A stretch of 8,466 nt of DNA from a virus (taxonomy: Duplodnaviria; Heunggongvirae; Uroviricota; Caudoviricetes). Location of the stretch: IMG/VR virus record IMGVR_UViG_2693429635_000026. The stretch is one strand, 5' to 3'. How positions within the stretch are numbered: position 1 is the stretch's first letter; each line of letters begins with the position of its first letter. The notes under the pieces are model-generated. The model was not told the DNA's origin. It saw only the letters and a list, made by a program, of their open reading frames with translations, and searched no databases. A program made the translations under genes and the position numbers. Shown here in pieces: positions 1 to 7,806 of the stretch.

Positions 1-483
1 ATGACGAAGAAAAAAGCACATAAACCTGGTTCAGCGACCATCGCGCTTAACAAGCGCGCCCGTCACGAATACTTTATCGAAGAAGAGTTCGAAGCGGGAC
101 TTGCCCTGCAAGGCTGGGAGGTTAAATCCCTGCGCGCAGGAAAAGCCAATATCAGCGACAGCTACGTCCTTCTGCGTGACGGAGAGGCATTTCTGTTTGG
201 CGCTAACATCACGCCAATGGCCGTGGCCTCCACGCATGTGGTGTGCGATCCTACCCGTACCCGCAAGTTACTTCTCAACCAGCGCGAACTGGACTCATTG
301 TACGGTCGCGTCAATCGAGAAGGCTATACCGTAGTGGCGCTCTCCCTGTACTGGAAAAATGCCTGGTGCAAAGTGAAAATCGGCGTCGCCAAAGGTAAAA
401 AACAGCACGATAAACGTTCAGATATCAAAGAACGCGAATGGCAGGTGGATAAAGCACGTATCATGAAAAACGCCCACCGTTAA
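1..483 (+). CDS. smpB: SsrA-binding protein SmpB (trans-translation factor), complete 160 aa
   Basis: ATG at 1, TAA at 481-483. The 160-aa translation ([30 protein letters not shown]...[10 protein letters not shown]) matches enterobacterial SmpB as I recall it, and the gene sits immediately upstream of ssrA as in the conserved smpB-ssrA arrangement. Confidence 0.96.
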
Positions 484-697: not shown

Positions 698-1060
698 GGG
701 GCTGATTCTGGATTCGACGGGATTTGCGAAACCCAAGGTGCATGCCGAGGGGCGGTTGGCCTCGTAAAAAGCCGCAAAAAATAGTCGCAAACGACGAAAA
801 CTACGCTTTAGCAGCTTAATAACCTGCTTAGAGCCCTCTCTCCCTAGCCTCCGCTCTTAGGACGGGGATCAAGAGAGGTCAAACCCAAAAGAGATCGCGT
901 GGAAGCCCTGCCTGGGGTTGAAGCGTTAAAACTTAATCAGGCTAGTTTGTTAGTGGCGTGTCCGTCCGCAGCTGGCAAGCGAATGTAAAGACTGACTAAG
1001 CATGTAGTACCGAGGATGTAGGAATTTCGGACGCGGGTTCAACTCCCGCCAGCTCCACCA
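698..1060 (+). ncRNA. ssrA: tmRNA (transfer-messenger RNA, SsrA), full length 363 nt
   Basis: Starts GGGGCTGATTCTGGATTCGACGGG (tRNA-like 5' end). The internal tag frame GCA AAC GAC GAA AAC TAC GCT TTA GCA GCT TAA at 787-819 encodes the degradation tag ANDENYALAA. The 3' end is GGTTCAACTCCCGCCAGCTCCACCA (T-arm, acceptor, CCA) at 1036-1060. Confidence 0.95.
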
Positions 1061-1188
1061 ATCATGATTGGACGGTGTAAGGACAACACCAACAAAAACA
1101 GGAAGTTAGCAGTCTCAGCAGGACACCGACCAGACGGTGAGGAGACAAAAAAGGATACGCAAAGGAGCCGCGGCTCTCAAGTGTGAAA

Positions 1189-1217
1189 GAAGCCCGCAAA
1201 TTGCGGGCTTTTTTATT
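1189..1217 (+). terminator. rho-independent terminator downstream of ssrA
   Basis: GC-rich hairpin AGCCCGC-aaatt-GCGGGCT (1191-1209) followed by a T-run TTTTTTATT. Confidence 0.6.
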
Positions 1218-1269
1218 GATCAGTCAACAATAAACAGTAACCGAATGAGAATTTAATAAGGATATTCAT

Positions 1270-2301
1270 ATGGAAGCTACTGTGGATTCGATTGATTTTC
1301 TGATCCGTAGTGAAGATGATTTTCTAAACTTTCTGGAAGAAATGAAAGCCCGAGAGGGGCTTGATTCTAAAGAGTTTATTTTCCCTAACGTAAAGTTTGC
1401 AGGCTGGCCATCCTTAGACATAAATGTAAAAGGAGAGCGGTATCATTCATCAATTACATCAGCAATGTTGTTTGGTATGTCAATGCTCAACGAGGAGATA
1501 CAGCGGGCGTTTGCAACCATACGATACGGATCGCAGAATCTTCAACGCTTGACTAATGAAGACAAGCAACGACTTGATATAAATTTTAAAATTAGCGAAG
1601 GTTCTAGTGATGCGGAAGGCACCACTGACAAGATCATCAACGCAGTAACTGATTTTTTGCGAGATACTATGTCTGGACTGAACGGCTGGCAGAAAATGCT
1701 TGTTATAATCACAATGGTTGGCGCGGCCAGCACATGTGGTTATCACTACATTTCAGAAAATGCCGTAACAGAAAGACATGCAACTGATCGGCAGGTTGAA
1801 ATTGCAAAAACCACATCCGATGGCATAAACAAAGCCATAGAAGCAACATTAGATTATAAAATCTATGGGAAATCAGCGATTAGCGATAAAGTTACTAGTC
1901 ACGGACAAGCAGGTAAAAGTGCTTTAGTGAAGCAATTAGCTGCTGATCCTACTGTCGAAACCGTGACTTTAGGAAATGAGAAACTAACACGACAAGACCT
2001 AAATACCTACAACAGCCGACAATCTGTAGATAGAGAACGTAAAGAACGAACTGATATATTTTCCATCAAAGGTGTAACCAGAACAGGGCCAACAAATCAG
2101 GATATTAATATTAACGTTGTTAGGGTCTCTAATGACGAATGCTTCACAATCAAAGCTTCAGCTGATGTTATCACCCAAGATGAGTTGACAGCTATTGTTG
2201 ACGCTTTGTCAAACAACTCTCATATTAAAATCAGTTACTTAGAGGTAATTGAAAAGGGTGCTGTTTCTATAGGTCAGTTCAACACTATTGTTTCAGAATA
2301 A
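1270..2301 (+). CDS. hypothetical protein, 343 aa, with a central hydrophobic (putative transmembrane) segment; no recognised domain
   Basis: Long uninterrupted ORF with a Shine-Dalgarno-like AAGGA about 8 nt upstream of the ATG (TAAGGATATTCATATG). AT-rich codon usage consistent along its length. The stretch WQKMLVIITMVGAASTCGYHYI near residues 140-161 is hydrophobic. The antisense ORFs 1480..1746 and 1542..1733 are shadows. Confidence 0.72.
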   Translation: MEATVDSIDFLIRSEDDFLNFLEEMKAREGLDSKEFIFPNVKFAGWPSLDINVKGERYHSSITSAMLFGMSMLNEEIQRAFATIRYGSQNLQRLTNEDKQRLDINFKISEGSSDAEGTTDKIINAVTDFLRDTMSGLNGWQKMLVIITMVGAASTCGYHYISENAVTERHATDRQVEIAKTTSDGINKAIEATLDYKIYGKSAISDKVTSHGQAGKSALVKQLAADPTVETVTLGNEKLTRQDLNTYNSRQSVDRERKERTDIFSIKGVTRTGPTNQDININVVRVSNDECFTIKASADVITQDELTAIVDALSNNSHIKISYLEVIEKGAVSIGQFNTIVSE

Positions 2302-2352
2302 TCACTTAACCCCATTTATGTCGGTTGAGGTTATAAGTCACGGAGACCAGAT

Positions 2353-2697
2353 ATGTCCTTAAAGTATGCACATGAAAAATTTCATACTGCAGTACTTACT
2401 CTTGCGGGCCATGGAAGTATTCAAGAACGCTTGATTAATTCGTATGTTTTTAGCCTTGGGCATCTTAAAACAGCCGATGATATTCCAAATGCCTTACAAA
2501 GCAGGTTCGATGAATTATGTAAGGAACTGACTAAGTTTGATGCCACTGGCGATGAGGGGCGAGTTCAAGCAACAGTATCAAAACTTAACGATTTCGAGAT
2601 CAATAAACTGATCGAAGATATTGTCAGTCTTAACGATGATATTTGCATGAAATTGGCTCTGACGGATGAGACTTACCAAGACATACACCAAAGTTAA
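2353..2697 (+). CDS. hypothetical protein, 114 aa, acidic and probably alpha-helical; likely co-transcribed with the upstream 343-aa ORF
   Basis: ATG at 2353 preceded by GGAGA about 7 nt upstream. Same strand as ORF 1270..2301 with a 51-bp gap, and followed by a hairpin terminator. No recognised motifs. Confidence 0.65.
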   Translation: MSLKYAHEKFHTAVLTLAGHGSIQERLINSYVFSLGHLKTADDIPNALQSRFDELCKELTKFDATGDEGRVQATVSKLNDFEINKLIEDIVSLNDDICMKLALTDETYQDIHQS

Positions 2698-2724
2698 TTG
2701 ATTAAATTCAAAAAGTTAACGTTC

Positions 2725-2750
2725 AACCAGCCAGTTTTTGGCTGGTTTAT
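2725..2750. terminator. putative bidirectional hairpin terminator between convergent genes
   Basis: AACCAGCC-agttttt-GGCTGGTT (8-bp stem, 2725-2747) followed by TTTATTGTC on the plus strand and flanked by an A/T tract on the other side. It lies between the stop of ORF 2353..2697 (+) and the stop of ORF 2782..2994 (-). Confidence 0.45.
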
Positions 2751-2781
2751 TGTCTTATAATATTCTTGCTCGAATGATGCA

Positions 2782-2994
2782 CTATTTATGATGTAATCCG
2801 GACATCAGTTCATGGACAAGATTATCTCTTTCATTGTGTTGCAACCGTAAATGCATAGCAAAAAGGTGAGCACTATCCTCATTCCTCTTCAAGCCATGCT
2901 GTTCAAGATACCCGAAAAAACGGCTTCTCTTATCCGCTATTTCCTGAGTCTGACGTGCAACATTTACCAAATTTTCTAGCGTTTTTCTTGGCAT
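2782..2994 (-). CDS. hypothetical small protein, 70 aa
   Basis: The minus-strand ATG at 2992-2994 is preceded by a strong Shine-Dalgarno AGGAGG (revcomp of CCTCCT at 3002-3007) at good spacing. Basic and His-rich; no family recognised. Confidence 0.5.
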   Translation of the reverse strand: MPRKTLENLVNVARQTQEIADKRSRFFGYLEQHGLKRNEDSAHLFAMHLRLQHNERDNLVHELMSGLHHK

Positions 2995-3192
2995 ACTATT
3001 TCCTCCTGAAATTGTTGTAATTCACTAGGATATTCATTTTAATTTGTATCATTTAGTACCAAAACCGCTATCAATTAACAAAGCCATCGTTGTGGTTTAC
3101 CTTGCAGCCGTTTTTTGTCATTGACTCTATGTGAAAATAATGAATCATCATGAGATTGGCTCACACGTTCTTGAATTCGACGAGCTGTGTCT

Positions 3193-3747
3193 TTATTTAT
3201 CTCCTGCCGGAAACCTCTGATACAAAGTCGATACGCCAACATCATAGATAATCGCAACTTTCTGGCGCGGAACTCCTGATGCAATTAATCGTCCGGCTTG
3301 TGCCCATTGTTCTGGTGTAAGTTTGGGACGACGTCCACCAATTCGTCCCTGTGCGCGAGCAGCTTCCAGTCCAGCTTTTGTTCGTTCAACAATCAGTTCT
3401 CGTTCCATTTCAGCCAGGGCCCCCATCACATGAAAGAAAAAGCGCCCCATTGGGGTACTGGTATCAATTGAATCCGTCAGACTACGAAAGTTGATGCCTC
3501 GTTCGCGCAACTCCTCCACCAGCACGACAAGATGCCGCATACTGCGCCCCAGTCGGTCCAGTTTCCAGACCACCAGCGTATCGCCTGCCGATAATGTCCT
3601 GAGCAGTTTTTTCAGTCCCGGCCTTTCGGACTTTGTACCGCTTATCTTGTCTTCAAAAATCAGCTCGCATCCTGCACAGTTCAGCGCATTACGTTGTAGA
3701 TCTGTGTTCTGGTCATTTGTTGACACACGTACATAGCCAATAAGCAT
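3193..3747 (-). CDS. pin: serine-recombinase DNA invertase, Pin/Gin/Hin/Cin family (184 aa)
   Basis: Translation from the internal Met (MLIGYVRVSTNDQNTDLQRNAL...GDTLVVWKLDRLGRSM...GINFRSLTDSIDTS...MGRFFFHVMGALAEMERELI...) has the resolvase/invertase catalytic N-terminus with the active-site Ser in VRVSTNDQ and a C-terminal HTH-like region. It is close to E. coli Pin as I recall it. I take the start as the ATG at 3745-3747 (SD AGGGAGA upstream) rather than the upstream Met at 3783. A gix/pix-like site lies 55 bp upstream. Confidence 0.93.
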   Translation of the reverse strand: MLIGYVRVSTNDQNTDLQRNALNCAGCELIFEDKISGTKSERPGLKKLLRTLSAGDTLVVWKLDRLGRSMRHLVVLVEELRERGINFRSLTDSIDTSTPMGRFFFHVMGALAEMERELIVERTKAGLEAARAQGRIGGRRPKLTPEQWAQAGRLIASGVPRQKVAIIYDVGVSTLYQRFPAGDK

Positions 3748-3773
3748 GGTAGATCTCCCTGACAAAAGCAGGA

Positions 3774-4268
3774 ATGATGCCATTTGCTCGTTATTTCTGC
3801 ATTTTCATAAACGTTGGTTTGGGAGAAGCGGCAAAACGAAATGTGGGCAACGGGGAAAACCAAATCCCTGATATGTCTTTCTGGACGGTTACTGGTGGCA
3901 ATGGAAATTTTGTGATTCGTCAACCTGACGGGCTAATCATTCAGATGGTTACTGTAAGTATAAGCGGTCCAGTGGCGATGAATGGAATGACTGATAATGC
4001 TTATGCCATTACAGGTTCTAATAAGTCTTATATTGCCACAGCCACATTGCCCTTTGTATTTCCTAATAAGGTGCTGGGCGTTATCCCTCTGGTATCAACA
4101 ACAGCTTATGGTGGTGTATCCAGTAATATTACAGGTTCATACGCGACGGCGGTTTGTTCTTTTGCCGCTGTCAGGGGGAATAATACGATTGTGTTCAAAG
4201 TCGACAAACCACTGAATGCAGCCTTTCCTTCAGATACCAGCGTCTCAGCGTTAATCATTGGACGGTAA
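3774..4268 (+). CDS. silent tail-fibre variable C-terminal cassette (Sv copy) with no constant N-terminal region
   Basis: From about 3816 onward the reading frame is identical to the C-terminal roughly 150 aa of the tail fibre gene at 7063..7806 ([17 protein letters not shown]...SALIIGR). The first roughly 14 codons (MMPFARYFCIFINV) are antisense read-through of the pin leader and are not part of the homologous sequence. Probably not expressed in this orientation. Confidence 0.5.
   Translation: MMPFARYFCIFINVGLGEAAKRNVGNGENQIPDMSFWTVTGGNGNFVIRQPDGLIIQMVTVSISGPVAMNGMTDNAYAITGSNKSYIATATLPFVFPNKVLGVIPLVSTTAYGGVSSNITGSYATAVCSFAAVRGNNTIVFKVDKPLNAAFPSDTSVSALIIGR
3802..3827 (+). other. invertase crossover site A (gix/hix/pix-like 26-bp site, proximal to pin)
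   Basis: TTTTCATAAACG-TT-GGTTTGGGAGAA. The half-sites fit the TTnTCnnAAACC pattern of Hin/Gin-family sites around a central 2-bp crossover. The inner half plus crossover (TTGGTTTGGGAGAA) is identical to sites B and C. Confidence 0.6.
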
Positions 4269-4270
4269 GA

Positions 4271-4714
4271 ATGAACTCAGTATTCTTTTCACCCGCAAGT
4301 AAAAGTTTTTATCTGCAAGAATTGTTTCCAGAATATGAGGATGCGGGAACGCTTCCTGATGATGTTATTGAAATTACCAGAGAAACATATGAGCAATTTC
4401 TTGGGCTGCATCCAGAAGGGAAAGAAATTGGCGCTGACAGTTCAGGACGGCCAATATGGATTAATTCCCCGCCGCCTTCAAAAGAGGATGAGATGCTGGC
4501 GGCTGAAATGAAAAAGATATCTTTGGTTTCAGAAGTCAATACCTACATCAATACCCATCAGTGGCCTGGCAAAGCTGCTATTGGTCGTCTGAAAGGTTAC
4601 GAGCTGGAACAATATAATTTATGGCTGGATTATCTGGACGCACTGGAACTGGTTGATACCTCCAGTGCTCCAGATATTGAATGGCCTACGCCTCCGGTAG
4701 TTCAGGCCAGATGA
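4271..4714 (+). CDS. tail fibre assembly protein (Mu U-like chaperone), copy A
   Basis: 147 aa with the Tfa-type C-terminal motif ...DTSSAPDIEWPTPP. Starts 2 bp after the Sv stop, suggesting translational coupling. Identical to the ORF at 6617..7060 (-). Confidence 0.82.
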   Translation: MNSVFFSPASKSFYLQELFPEYEDAGTLPDDVIEITRETYEQFLGLHPEGKEIGADSSGRPIWINSPPPSKEDEMLAAEMKKISLVSEVNTYINTHQWPGKAAIGRLKGYELEQYNLWLDYLDALELVDTSSAPDIEWPTPPVVQAR

Positions 4715-5291
4715 CATCCGGCGCGGTGCTGGTATCTGTTGCAGTCACCGCGTCAATGTAATCCAGCACAGCGTTAAGCCGGGTTGTTTCTGCCTGCGTC
4801 AGCTTCCGCCCGGCCTGCAATTTCAGCTGAATCAGACTAATGGAAGCCATAGCAGCATCAATCAGTGACTGGCGCCGTACTTCTGCCGCGTCTACTGCGG
4901 CGTTATGCTGTGCCTCAGTATCGGTCACCCATTTCTCACCATCCCATTTATCGTATGACGTTAACGGGGCGATAGTGGTTGTATTTTCAGGGTAATCACC
5001 CGGAACTGTGATTTCTTTTGATTCTCCTGTTTCGGTGCTATAGACGATTTCACCGCGATGGTCTGGCACATATTCCCATGAGTTAAAATCTGCAGAACGG
5101 CAAATTGCATAACCAGCTTTATATGAGCCAGGAGCATCTAAACAGGAACATGCCGGGATACCAACACCCACAGCAAGATATTCAGTTGATGTGGAAATAT
5201 ATTCCCGTGTTTCACCATCATAATTATAAACGGTAATGTCTCCGGCCTTTGTGGCGATGAGTTCATTATTTAATACAGCTTTACTTATCAT
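4686..5291 (-). CDS. tail fibre assembly protein (Mu U'-like chaperone), copy A
   Basis: 201 aa ending ...DTSTAPDVIWPELPEA (Tfa family C-terminal motif). Identical to the ORF at 6040..6645 (+). Its 3' end overlaps the 3' end of 4271..4714 convergently by 29 bp. Confidence 0.82.
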   Translation of the reverse strand: MISKAVLNNELIATKAGDITVYNYDGETREYISTSTEYLAVGVGIPACSCLDAPGSYKAGYAICRSADFNSWEYVPDHRGEIVYSTETGESKEITVPGDYPENTTTIAPLTSYDKWDGEKWVTDTEAQHNAAVDAAEVRRQSLIDAAMASISLIQLKLQAGRKLTQAETTRLNAVLDYIDAVTATDTSTAPDVIWPELPEA

Positions 5292-5570
5292 GCAGCCCTC
5301 ACAATATAATTAAAGGCGATGTTACGGGAGCGGGTTTCAGATGCTGTGCGAACTGAGCGAGATGCGTCGAATGTCCAGTTATAAGCGCCATAACCCTCAA
5401 TAATTTCGGCTTCCTTTAGACCTGTAGATAATACTTGCCCATGTTGACTAAATGGCCCTGAACTAAGTACGTCTCTAAAAAGCTGGGTACGCCCAAAAGA
5501 ACCAACAATATTCTGAATTGCATCATTCTGTGCAGATAATAAGTTACGACCAGAGTCAATCCCGCGCCCA
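5288..5570 (-). pseudogene. 5'-truncated copy of the tail-collar-type variable cassette Sv' (C-terminal roughly 93 codons, no start)
   Basis: Reverse complement of 5761..6043, which is the C-terminal part of ORF 5576..6043 (...ETRSRNIAFNYIVRAA). The duplication breakpoint at 5570/5571 cuts the cassette mid-gene, and there is no in-frame Met in the retained part. Confidence 0.55.
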
Positions 5571-5584
5571 TTGGTTTGGGAGAA
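5559..5584 (+). other. invertase crossover site C (conserved inner half and crossover, degenerate outer half)
   Basis: ATCCCGCGCCCA-TT-GGTTTGGGAGAA. The crossover and inner half are identical to sites A and B, but the outer half is a poor match. Recombination with site B would fuse the constant part of S in frame to Sv'. Confidence 0.55.
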
Positions 5585-6043
5585 GGTTCGGCATTACCCG
5601 TTGGTGTGCCTGTTCCGTGGCCTTCCGCCACTCCGCCAACGGGGTGGCTAAAATGTAACGGAGCAGTATTTTCTTCTGAAAAGTACCCAAATCTGGCAAA
5701 GGCTTACCCAACATTAAAATTACCAGATTTACGCGGTGAATTTATTCGTGGCTGGGATGATGGGCGCGGGATTGACTCTGGTCGTAACTTATTATCTGCA
5801 CAGAATGATGCAATTCAGAATATTGTTGGTTCTTTTGGGCGTACCCAGCTTTTTAGAGACGTACTTAGTTCAGGGCCATTTAGTCAACATGGGCAAGTAT
5901 TATCTACAGGTCTAAAGGAAGCCGAAATTATTGAGGGTTATGGCGCTTATAACTGGACATTCGACGCATCTCGCTCAGTTCGCACAGCATCTGAAACCCG
6001 CTCCCGTAACATCGCCTTTAATTATATTGTGAGGGCTGCATGA
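5576..6043 (+). CDS. alternative tail-fibre variable C-terminal cassette Sv' (phage tail-collar-like receptor-binding domain), currently unfused
   Basis: The translation carries motifs I recall from tail-fibre C-termini of the tail-collar type (ALPVGVPVPWPSATPPTGWLKCNGAVFSSEKYPNLA...LPDLRGEFIRGWDDGRGIDSGR...ETRSRNIAFNYIVRAA). The ORF-track start is a TTG lying inside site C, so the real product would be made only as a fusion after inversion. Its stop overlaps the downstream tfa start (ATGA). Confidence 0.75.
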   Translation: MGEGSALPVGVPVPWPSATPPTGWLKCNGAVFSSEKYPNLAKAYPTLKLPDLRGEFIRGWDDGRGIDSGRNLLSAQNDAIQNIVGSFGRTQLFRDVLSSGPFSQHGQVLSTGLKEAEIIEGYGAYNWTFDASRSVRTASETRSRNIAFNYIVRAA

Positions 6044-6645
6044 TAAGTAAAGCTGTATTAAATAATGAACTCATCGCCACAAAGGCCGGAGACATTACCG
6101 TTTATAATTATGATGGTGAAACACGGGAATATATTTCCACATCAACTGAATATCTTGCTGTGGGTGTTGGTATCCCGGCATGTTCCTGTTTAGATGCTCC
6201 TGGCTCATATAAAGCTGGTTATGCAATTTGCCGTTCTGCAGATTTTAACTCATGGGAATATGTGCCAGACCATCGCGGTGAAATCGTCTATAGCACCGAA
6301 ACAGGAGAATCAAAAGAAATCACAGTTCCGGGTGATTACCCTGAAAATACAACCACTATCGCCCCGTTAACGTCATACGATAAATGGGATGGTGAGAAAT
6401 GGGTGACCGATACTGAGGCACAGCATAACGCCGCAGTAGACGCGGCAGAAGTACGGCGCCAGTCACTGATTGATGCTGCTATGGCTTCCATTAGTCTGAT
6501 TCAGCTGAAATTGCAGGCCGGGCGGAAGCTGACGCAGGCAGAAACAACCCGGCTTAACGCTGTGCTGGATTACATTGACGCGGTGACTGCAACAGATACC
6601 AGCACCGCGCCGGATGTCATCTGGCCTGAACTACCGGAGGCGTAG
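6040..6645 (+). CDS. tail fibre assembly protein (U'-like), copy B, cognate chaperone of Sv'
   Basis: 201 aa, Tfa C-terminal motif, start overlapping the Sv' stop (ATGA), SD GAGGG upstream. Confidence 0.88.
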   Translation: MISKAVLNNELIATKAGDITVYNYDGETREYISTSTEYLAVGVGIPACSCLDAPGSYKAGYAICRSADFNSWEYVPDHRGEIVYSTETGESKEITVPGDYPENTTTIAPLTSYDKWDGEKWVTDTEAQHNAAVDAAEVRRQSLIDAAMASISLIQLKLQAGRKLTQAETTRLNAVLDYIDAVTATDTSTAPDVIWPELPEA

Positions 6646-7060
6646 GCCATTCAATATCTGGAGCACTGGAGGTATCAACCAGTTCCAGTGCGTCCAGATA
6701 ATCCAGCCATAAATTATATTGTTCCAGCTCGTAACCTTTCAGACGACCAATAGCAGCTTTGCCAGGCCACTGATGGGTATTGATGTAGGTATTGACTTCT
6801 GAAACCAAAGATATCTTTTTCATTTCAGCCGCCAGCATCTCATCCTCTTTTGAAGGCGGCGGGGAATTAATCCATATTGGCCGTCCTGAACTGTCAGCGC
6901 CAATTTCTTTCCCTTCTGGATGCAGCCCAAGAAATTGCTCATATGTTTCTCTGGTAATTTCAATAACATCATCAGGAAGCGTTCCCGCATCCTCATATTC
7001 TGGAAACAATTCTTGCAGATAAAAACTTTTACTTGCGGGTGAAAAGAATACTGAGTTCAT
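6617..7060 (-). CDS. tail fibre assembly protein (U-like), copy B, cognate chaperone of the expressed tail fibre
   Basis: 147 aa. Starts 2 bp after the stop of the tail fibre gene at 7063..7806 on the same strand. Tfa-type C-terminus. Confidence 0.88.
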   Translation of the reverse strand: MNSVFFSPASKSFYLQELFPEYEDAGTLPDDVIEITRETYEQFLGLHPEGKEIGADSSGRPIWINSPPPSKEDEMLAAEMKKISLVSEVNTYINTHQWPGKAAIGRLKGYELEQYNLWLDYLDALELVDTSSAPDIEWPTPPVVQAR

Positions 7061-7062
7061 TC

Positions 7063-7806
7063 TTACCGTCCAATGATTAACGCTGAGACGCTGGTATCTG
7101 AAGGAAAGGCTGCATTCAGTGGTTTGTCGACTTTGAACACAATCGTATTATTCCCCCTGACAGCGGCAAAAGAACAAACCGCCGTCGCGTATGAACCTGT
7201 AATATTACTGGATACACCACCATAAGCTGTTGTTGATACCAGAGGGATAACGCCCAGCACCTTATTAGGAAATACAAAGGGCAATGTGGCTGTGGCAATA
7301 TAAGACTTATTAGAACCTGTAATGGCATAAGCATTATCAGTCATTCCATTCATCGCCACTGGACCGCTTATACTTACAGTAACCATCTGAATGATTAGCC
7401 CGTCAGGTTGACGAATCACAAAATTTCCATTGCCACCAGTAACCGTCCAGAAAGACATATCAGGGATTTGGTTTTCCCCGTTGCCCACATTTCGTTTTGC
7501 CGCTTCTCCCAAACCAAGGTTTTCGAGAGCCGTTTTCACCGTGCCATCAGATTTGATATCGCCAAACGGATTCTTGCGGCTTAACAGCAGCGCACGAAGC
7601 GCGGTAAGCAGCTGGTCATGCCGCCCCTTCTCCAGGCTGGCACCGGATGCCTCCACCACGCTGCAGAGTTCTTCCTGCAACATGTCAAAGTAGTCATCAT
7701 CCAGATCGGTGGCAGGTGTGCCGGTCTGGGGGTTACCACGGGTAAAACCGTTCTTACCCGCGCCGAACTTATCCTTCTGCGCGGTTTTCGTGTCTATACG
7801 ATGCAT
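7063..7806 (-). CDS. phage tail fibre protein S (constant N-terminal part 7518..7806 fused to variable part Sv 7063..7517), 247 aa
   Basis: ATG at 7804-7806 (minus strand) with SD GGAG upstream, immediately after the stop of the upstream tail gene. Crossover site B lies inside the ORF at the ...ENLG|LGEAA... junction, as expected for Mu S, P1 and e14-type invertible tail fibre genes. Confidence 0.88.
7504..7529 (+). other. invertase crossover site B (gix/pix-like, inside the tail fibre gene at the constant/variable boundary)
   Basis: Plus strand TTCTCCCAAACC-AA-GGTTTTCGAGAG. Its reverse complement CTCTCGAAAACC-TT-GGTTTGGGAGAA is inverted relative to sites A and C, with both half-sites fitting the TTnTCnnAAACC pattern. 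Confidence 0.65.

Follow-up and report, generated by a model that had tools for sequence, protein, structure and literature searches.

The interval between the repressor gene cI and N in temperate phages is a hotspot of mosaic diversity that is highly transcribed in lysogens, and it holds the abortive-infection systems rexAB and bstA (PMC8585504); the P2 Z/fun and cos-proximal loci are also defence hotspots (PMC13586616; PMC9122126). AbiP of Lactococcus and PdpSau of Staphylococcus aureus prophages are membrane-anchored OB-fold abortive-infection proteins, and PdpSau depolarises infected cells (PMC10127798). The Sie-type proteins (P22 SieA, T4 Imm and Sp, lactococcal Sie2009 and HK97 gp15) are encoded by phages or prophages, made in lysogens, and block DNA entry. 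Here we examine ORF343, an open reading frame (ORF) for a protein of 343 amino acids (aa) in IMG/VR record IMGVR_UViG_2693429635_000026, an 8,466-nucleotide (nt) stretch of Caudoviricetes DNA that was analysed as a whole and is called the window below. ORF343 starts 210 bp past the gene for transfer-messenger RNA (tmRNA), ssrA, at the edge of a P2-like prophage remnant in Escherichia coli. Judged by its sequence and surroundings, it appears to be a stand-alone prophage accessory ("moron") gene of an uncharacterised family, and by analogy with the systems above we put at about 0.5 the probability that its product is a lysogen-expressed, membrane-anchored phage-exclusion or abortive-infection protein. 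This reading rests on context and architecture: the precedent of rexAB and bstA in the cI–N slot, and that of AbiP and PdpSau as membrane-anchored OB-fold proteins.

An earlier note, made from the DNA letters, had described a 343-aa protein at 1270–2301 with a single central hydrophobic helix and no enzymatic motif, and had suggested a membrane-anchored sensor or effector. ORF343 is a real gene under purifying selection, since it has hundreds of homologues and a ratio of nonsynonymous to synonymous substitution rates (dN/dS) of 0.046 between its Cronobacter and Mangrovibacter orthologues; in the comparison with E. coli, synonymous sites are saturated and dN is 0.11. The gene and its 5′ signals are as follows.

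1270 to 2301, plus strand: ORF343 coding sequence, 343 aa, a member of PHROG 6191 under purifying selection, with its ATG at 1270 and its stop codon at 2299–2301.
1258 to 1262, plus strand: Shine-Dalgarno-like AAGGA, 7 nt 5′ of the ATG, read from the sequence.
1190 to 1214, plus strand: intrinsic-terminator-like hairpin AAGCCCGCA-AAT-TGCGGGCTT with a T-run after it, in the interval from ssrA to ORF343, read from the sequence.

A word-indexed search returned 76 relatives with 35–100% identity, all from Enterobacterales and all labelled "hypothetical". When 1.84 billion representatives were searched with a family profile of 43 sequences and no word index, 842 clusters (50% identity) were recovered at E ≤ 0.001 and 500 at E ≤ 1e-10, with lengths nearly all of 320–350 aa and cluster members again all labelled "hypothetical". 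The family is thus large and unnamed, and it occurs in Gammaproteobacteria (Escherichia, Cronobacter, Yersinia, Serratia, Klebsiella, Salmonella, Aeromonas, Oceanimonas, Marinobacter, Pseudoalteromonas and Pseudomonas) and their temperate phages, including one Moraxella phage. The sole family-library match, to PHROG 6191 (E = 6.8e-38), spans residues 7–340 against profile positions 5–331 of 338, and this PHROG carries no functional annotation. Pfam, NCBIfam and PADLOC gave no consistent match for the ORF343 protein or 136 diverse relatives; matches to LapA_dom, SpoIIIAH and RecG_wedge were rejected as single-member noise among the 136. No enzymatic family emerged from the library scans of the protein and its relatives, in agreement with the motif-free description in the earlier note. 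A profile search of the PDB yielded sub-threshold matches only (E ≥ 0.079), mostly to membrane proteins; at profile positions 131–240, 12 of the 16 weak matches were membrane proteins, largely single-pass (PilN, PBP5, Tom20, butyrophilin). The literature on PhiR12, phi458 Orf11, the protein accessions and PHROG 6191 yielded no functional statement.

The positions of the relatives connect the family to temperate phages and, in part, to the repressor. In phi458 (46% identity) and in five PhiR12 phages (26%), the gene lies directly 3′ of cI, before N and the recombination genes, and it adjoins cI on the same strand also in two Yersinia prophages, a Pantoea prophage and the Moraxella phage Mcat17, whose upstream 240-aa protein is an S24-peptidase repressor. 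We built our own repressor and integrase profiles and applied them to all 74 fetched loci, which fall into 29 clusters (90% identity). A repressor stands immediately upstream on the same strand in 8 of the 29 clusters (gap 20–687 nt, mostly 20–135 nt), and a convergent integrase immediately downstream (attachment site, gene, integrase) in 5; two of the cI-linked clusters (L041 and L067) are 66–72% identical to the window protein. Elsewhere the gene is found between icd, which serves as the attachment site, and a convergent integrase (Serratia, Lelliottia, Citrobacter), at the prophage end next to tail-fibre genes (Enterobacter, Xenorhabdus), within the tail module (Klebsiella prophages), or, as in E. 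coli, between ssrA and a module of pin and tail-fibre genes (Mangrovibacter). Some homologues lie in defence-island-like neighbourhoods. No conserved neighbour or partner gene was present in the loci compared, and the gene is intact in a prophage remnant that lacks replication and head genes. Because the gene stands alone, moves across phage types, occupies slots that are transcribed in lysogens and is kept under purifying selection in remnants, it has the properties of a prophage accessory gene. Both this accessory nature and the homologues directly behind cI had been missed in the earlier note.

The family resembles RexAB of lambda and BstA of Salmonella BTP1 in that homologues occupy the cI-to-N interval on the cI strand and are presumably expressed in the lysogen, and, as with RexB, a membrane component appears to be involved. 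However, the co-oriented slot of RexAB is occupied in the 8 repressor-linked clusters of 29, and the window copy adjoins ssrA instead; RexAB is a two-gene operon for a soluble sensor and a polytopic membrane protein, whereas ORF343 is a single gene with one hydrophobic segment and no conserved neighbour. RexB has four membrane helices, compared with one predicted in ORF343, and BstA is soluble with a KilA-N domain. PADLOC holds RexAB models, and neither PADLOC nor Pfam gave a match of the protein to RexA or RexB at E ≤ 1.

To characterize the domain architecture, we used a full-length AlphaFold2 model, which has a mean predicted local distance difference test (pLDDT) score of 80.4 and a predicted template modelling (pTM) score of 0.63. 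The model orders the chain as an alpha/beta domain (10–132), a helix (139–153), a linker (156–182), a helical hairpin (180–225), a short beta-hairpin with a helix, and a barrel (255–340). The corresponding features are as follows.

1270 to 1674, plus strand: acidic N-terminal alpha/beta domain, residues 1–135 (pLDDT 76–89 for residues 11–150).
1696 to 1752, plus strand: putative transmembrane helix MLVIITMVGAASTCGYHYI, residues 143–161, with family-wide evidence and marginal in this copy.
1753 to 1806, plus strand: low-confidence linker, residues 162–179 (pLDDT below 50 at residues 156–182).
1807 to 1944, plus strand: predicted helical hairpin, residues 180–225, with model helices at 180–200 and 203–225.
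1903 to 1920, plus strand: GQAGKS, residues 212–217, within the hairpin helix 203–225.
2032 to 2289, plus strand: modelled C-terminal OB-fold-like beta-barrel, residues 255–340, with five strands and a helix between the third and the fourth.

Conservation across the family is highest in the N-terminal domain, where mean pairwise identity is 27.5% compared with 15–19% in the hairpin and barrel; this domain carries the motifs F-x-GWP-x-L-x-INVKG, EIQRA[FY]A and NLQRLT..DK..LDI.F.I.EGSS. In the Mcat17 protein it is the only domain recognised by the profile (hhalign probability 98.7), and that protein retains the central hydrophobic segment. No known fold was found to match the N-terminal domain, whose stand-alone model (pLDDT 62) is too poor for a separate fold search. 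The compositional contrast drawn in the earlier note holds, with a net charge of −9 over the N-terminal 139 residues and a moderate enrichment of T (10.4%), S (8.8%), K (7.1%) and N (6.6%) over the C-terminal 182. It had also been right not to call GQAGKS a Walker A motif, although the motif lies at residues 212–217 rather than near 205. We reject a P-loop on the GxxGKS spacing, which is not GxxxxGK[ST], and on its location inside a predicted helix; the position of the Lys holds K, R or Q in close homologues and is unconserved in the wider family, and the Pfam scan contained no NTPase family.

The C-terminal ~90 residues are modelled as an OB-fold, among whose best fold matches are the periplasmic or secreted OB-folds of SilF, toxin B subunits and YgiW. 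This assigns a fold rather than a function, and no confident match to a soluble domain of known function was obtained for the protein. A Foldseek search of viral models (BFVD) gave three full-length phage analogues with low template modelling scores (TM-scores) and E values of ~3–6e-6, the top one being labelled "DUF6575 domain-containing protein" (E = 3.4e-6 over 322 columns, TM-score ~0.2). One E. coli defence system recovered by experimental selection is described as having a DUF6575 domain (Vassallo et al. 2022; PMC9519451). The Pfam scan of 136 members contained no DUF6575 and PADLOC gave no PD-system match, and we treat this model-based resemblance as a lead, not as evidence.

The segment WQKMLVIITMVGAASTCGYHYI, residues 140–161, is the sole hydrophobic peak of the ORF343 protein. 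In this copy the Wimley-White octanol energy reaches its minimum of −3.9 kcal/mol at residues 143–161, and all 19-residue windows with a negative value start at residues 133–144. Across the family, the hydropathy maximum falls at residues 110–190 in 198 of 204 homologues, 158 of which reach a Kyte-Doolittle value of at least 1.6, and at a relative position of 0.35–0.50 in 131 of 133 representatives (50% identity). The stretch free of charged residues is typically 19 residues long (median; interquartile range 18–21). Summed on the Wimley-White scale, it comes out negative in 129 of 132 representatives, and aromatic residues are enriched at its C-terminal end (1.31 versus 0.27 per six residues). 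In an alignment of 70 diverse members, charged residues make up 0–4% at columns 143–158, 160 and 161 and 8% at column 159; the columns lack a polar face and are flanked by K/Q/K columns on one side and S/K/D on the other, and apart from a conserved Gly at column 157 the sequence of the segment is variable. This is the predicted signature of a membrane-spanning helix rather than of an amphipathic core helix, and the ORF343 protein probably has a real membrane anchor, as the earlier note had proposed; the proposal of one anchor between two domains draws its support from the family-wide in silico evidence, whereas this copy alone is marginal.

The anchor and OB-fold that ORF343 is predicted to have are combined also in AbiP and PdpSau, each a single gene on a mobile element or prophage that encodes a membrane helix and an OB-fold domain. 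Their anchor, however, is N-terminal, whereas the ORF343 segment is central (143–161) with ~140 aa before it; they lack the conserved 135-aa N-terminal domain, act in Gram-positive hosts, and have an OB region described as basic and nucleic-acid-binding, whereas that of ORF343 is net acidic. No sequence relationship to them was detectable. The Sie-type proteins are inner-membrane proteins, as is proposed for the ORF343 product, and are likewise encoded by single genes in accessory positions; they are small, with little extramembrane mass, whereas in ORF343 the segment is predicted to be flanked by two folded domains, each of 135 aa or more, and no homology was detected.

The PhiR12 homologue is labelled "T2SS GspM containing protein" (T2SS, type II secretion system) in GenBank, and the layout of GspM, PilN and GspL, in which one membrane helix leads into a helical segment and then a small domain rich in beta-strands, resembles that predicted for ORF343; the family profile aligns weakly with PilN residues 21–142 over the membrane and coiled-coil part (E = 0.089). 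We nevertheless reject membership in that group: neither GspM nor PilN was matched in Pfam, the C-terminal domain is modelled as an OB-fold, whereas GspM/PilN-type proteins have a ferredoxin-like periplasmic domain, and the neighbours are prophage genes, with no secretion or pilus genes. By the features tested, ORF343 falls outside the RexAB, AbiP/PdpSau, Sie, GspM/PilN and P-loop families and inside PHROG 6191, and we found no described counterpart in which a conserved N-terminal domain of 135 aa occurs together with a central helix and an OB-fold.

We propose that one membrane-spanning helix would leave the protein with a folded domain on either face of the inner membrane. We infer lysogen expression from position; in many relatives the gene, directly after cI, would be read from the repressor transcript. 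The protein would then act at the inner membrane and shield its lysogen against superinfection by other phages. Most likely, the variable hairpin-plus-OB half would recognise a phage component, and the conserved N-terminal domain and helix would carry out a common action. That action could be the obstruction of genome entry (superinfection exclusion) or an oligomerisation that perturbs the membrane (abortive infection, as with RexAB or PdpSau); the sequence does not decide between a block to entry and killing of the infected cell. What the earlier note had observed is thus confirmed with corrections, and its interpretation is supported in part.

Several points weigh against an exclusion or abortive-infection protein. 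Guilt by association is weak evidence; the window copy lies beside ssrA in a prophage remnant and not beside cI; and PADLOC models gave only single noise matches across the 136 members. Because the hairpin at 1190–1214 separates ORF343 from ssrA, the gene would need its own promoter, and a consensus scan found no plus-strand promoter-like site 5′ of ORF343; a weak candidate, TCAACA-17-GAGAAT at 1224–1252, matches the consensus at 8 of 12 positions by eye. The strong hairpin was likewise not listed by the consensus scan. The OB domain, with 10 K/R and 13 D/E in residues 255–343 by hand count, has a net charge of ~−3, unlike the basic, nucleic-acid-binding domain described for PdpSau, and this composition does not point to nucleic-acid binding. 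As for the anchor, the segment had been called the only strongly hydrophobic stretch, of which "only" stands and "strongly" goes too far for this copy: the top 19-residue Kyte-Doolittle window (143–161) scores 1.41, under the classical cut-off of 1.6, a value equalled by 45% of shuffles of the protein. Flanks of 15 and 8 residues show no significant positive-inside bias, giving no orientation. When the N-terminal domain was modelled alone (residues 1–138), its beta-sheet was lost and pLDDT fell to 62, compared with 76–89 for the same residues in the full-length model. Since the sheet is lost without residues beyond 138, the hydrophobic helix may pack on the N-terminal domain, and it may be buried there instead of spanning the membrane.

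Among the alternatives, a lysogenic-conversion membrane protein apart from defence survives best, and we regard it as rather unlikely. Like the prophage accessory genes bor and lom, the gene would then influence the envelope or fitness of the host through changes in its surface, tolerance of stress, biofilm or virulence. A gene that stands alone in accessory positions and stays under purifying selection in cryptic remnants fits this explanation equally well, and the periplasmic and secreted OB-folds among the best fold matches agree with it. The phi458 prophage is reported to affect biofilm and virulence, with no gene assigned (PMC9701743). On the other hand, the cI–N slot and the defence-island-like neighbours fit phage exclusion better, a fast-diverging C-terminal half is typical of arms-race targets, and we saw neither a signal peptide nor a lipobox nor anything adhesin-like in the ORF343 protein.

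A soluble cytoplasmic two-domain factor, whose hydrophobic helix would serve as a buried core or oligomerisation helix, is unlikely. The low hydropathy peak of this copy, the unbiased flanking charges and the dependence of the N-terminal fold on residues beyond 138 all suit it, as do the high pLDDT of helix 139–153 and the finding that in only 31 of 133 representatives does the peak exceed 95% of the protein's own shuffles (p ≤ 0.05). Against it stand the charge-free stretch of ~19 residues in 70 diverse members, which has no polar face, charged boundaries, an aromatic end and a constant length despite its variable sequence, together with the nearly uniform negative free energies; in addition, AlphaFold routinely packs membrane helices onto soluble domains.

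A protein for the phage's own life cycle, such as a membrane tether in replication or injection or a regulator of the lysis–lysogeny decision, is more doubtful. The gene is carried by the functional temperate phages phi458, PhiR12 and Mcat17 and lies within the tail gene module in Klebsiella prophages. Its position nevertheless differs from one phage type to another, most related phages lack the gene (7 of 50,697 phage records carry it), and it is kept intact in remnants without replication and head genes; such variable position, rarity and retention are properties of an accessory gene and not of a core function.

The surroundings of ORF343 in the window comprise the following features.

1 to 483: smpB, at the window start.
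698 to 1060, plus strand: ssrA (tmRNA; Rfam RF00023, 295.8 bits), with the same annotation in E. coli FDAARGOS_1287, where this region is identical.
2353 to 2697, plus strand: ORF114, 51 nt 3′ of ORF343 with no terminator between.
2725 to 2747, no strand assigned: GC-rich hairpin with T-runs, the likely terminator of the ORF343–ORF114 unit and of the convergent ORF70.
3193 to 3783: Pin/Hin-type invertase (Pfam Resolvase, 1.8e-51).

The ssrA gene is the chromosomal integration site that the island abuts and is separate from the ORF343 gene. Downstream of ORF343 follow the 114-aa and 70-aa ORFs, the invertase, and P2-like tail-fibre, tail-fibre-assembly and baseplate genes, and the GC content drops from ~50% to 37–42% over the ORF343–ORF114–ORF70 block; the drop and the flanking genes together place ORF343 where the ssrA integration site meets a remnant of a P2-like prophage. 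Since the remnant is rearranged, the block cannot be assigned to the Z/fun position of P2. Window positions 1000–3200 are 100% identical to several E. coli chromosomes and are present at full length in 46 of 5,426 complete genomes.

ORF343 and ORF114 are probably co-transcribed in E. coli, to judge from their spacing and their shared terminator. ORF114 is nearly an orphan, with 6 clusters among 5.8 billion proteins and no match in Pfam, NCBIfam, PADLOC or PHROGs; it is absent next to the Mangrovibacter and Cronobacter orthologues of ORF343 (81–82% identity) and is unrelated to the gene that follows the phi458 homologue, and as a conserved partner of the family it was rejected on its near-orphan status and its absence beside orthologues. 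A two-gene toxin–antitoxin or sensor–effector pair of ORF343 and ORF114 is therefore very improbable, even though the genes share a 51-nt gap and a common terminator and occur together in every one of the 20 genomes listed out of the 46 E. coli genomes that hold the full region, because ORF114 has 6 clusters against hundreds for ORF343 and is missing beside the close orthologues and in all other contexts examined.

Further observations concern the neighbouring DNA. ORF70 (2782–2994, minus strand) lies on the same strand as the pin invertase and downstream of it, converges on the terminator at 2725–2747, and has no match in Pfam, PADLOC, PHROGs or NCBIfam. Within the Pin-invertible P2-like tail-fibre region sits a perfect 1,763-nt inverted repeat (3809–5571 and 5760–7522, arms separated by 188 nt), which doubles the tail-fibre C-terminus and two tail-fibre-assembly genes (ORFs 4271–4714 = 6617–7060 and 4686–5291 = 6040–6645) and could be a recent inversion-duplication or an assembly artefact. 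In the otherwise identical strain FDAARGOS_1287, the tail-fibre region is arranged differently, with a second recombinase. Further right in the same island of that strain (34400–35719), a three-gene operon beside an integrase ends in a SecB-like chaperone gene and resembles, by description, the exotoxin-A-like/unknown/SecB defence system of Vassallo et al. (PMC9519451). In the Cronobacter loci, a second 343-aa ORF without a Pfam domain (10157–11188) lies 1.1 kb past the homologue and has no sequence relation to ORF343. The DNA to the left of the Cronobacter homologue varies among strains (a CbtA/CbeA island or a P2/186-like prophage), which indicates that the locus borders an integration hotspot.

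If ORF343 had no role in phage exclusion, it would be one more conserved prophage accessory gene of unknown function. Our broader proposal, which is tentative and falls somewhat short of even odds, is that the family represents a new and widespread kind of anti-phage immunity in which a single protein spans the inner membrane, couples recognition of phage on one side to action on the other, and joins a conserved N-terminal module to a fast-diversifying hairpin/OB module; its genes would be carried in the repressor-adjacent (rexAB/bstA) slot and other accessory slots of temperate phages of Gammaproteobacteria. If the family does exclude phages, a common single-gene system, so far unannotated and recognised by none of Pfam, NCBIfam and PADLOC, would join the prophage defence repertoire of Enterobacterales and other Gammaproteobacteria. 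It would then be relevant to the resistance of lysogens in phage therapy and would help to explain the cargo of the highly transcribed slot behind the repressor of temperate phages. Its two-sided architecture would also provide a simple model of how, as a phage genome enters, a signal is passed or an obstruction is set up across the inner membrane.

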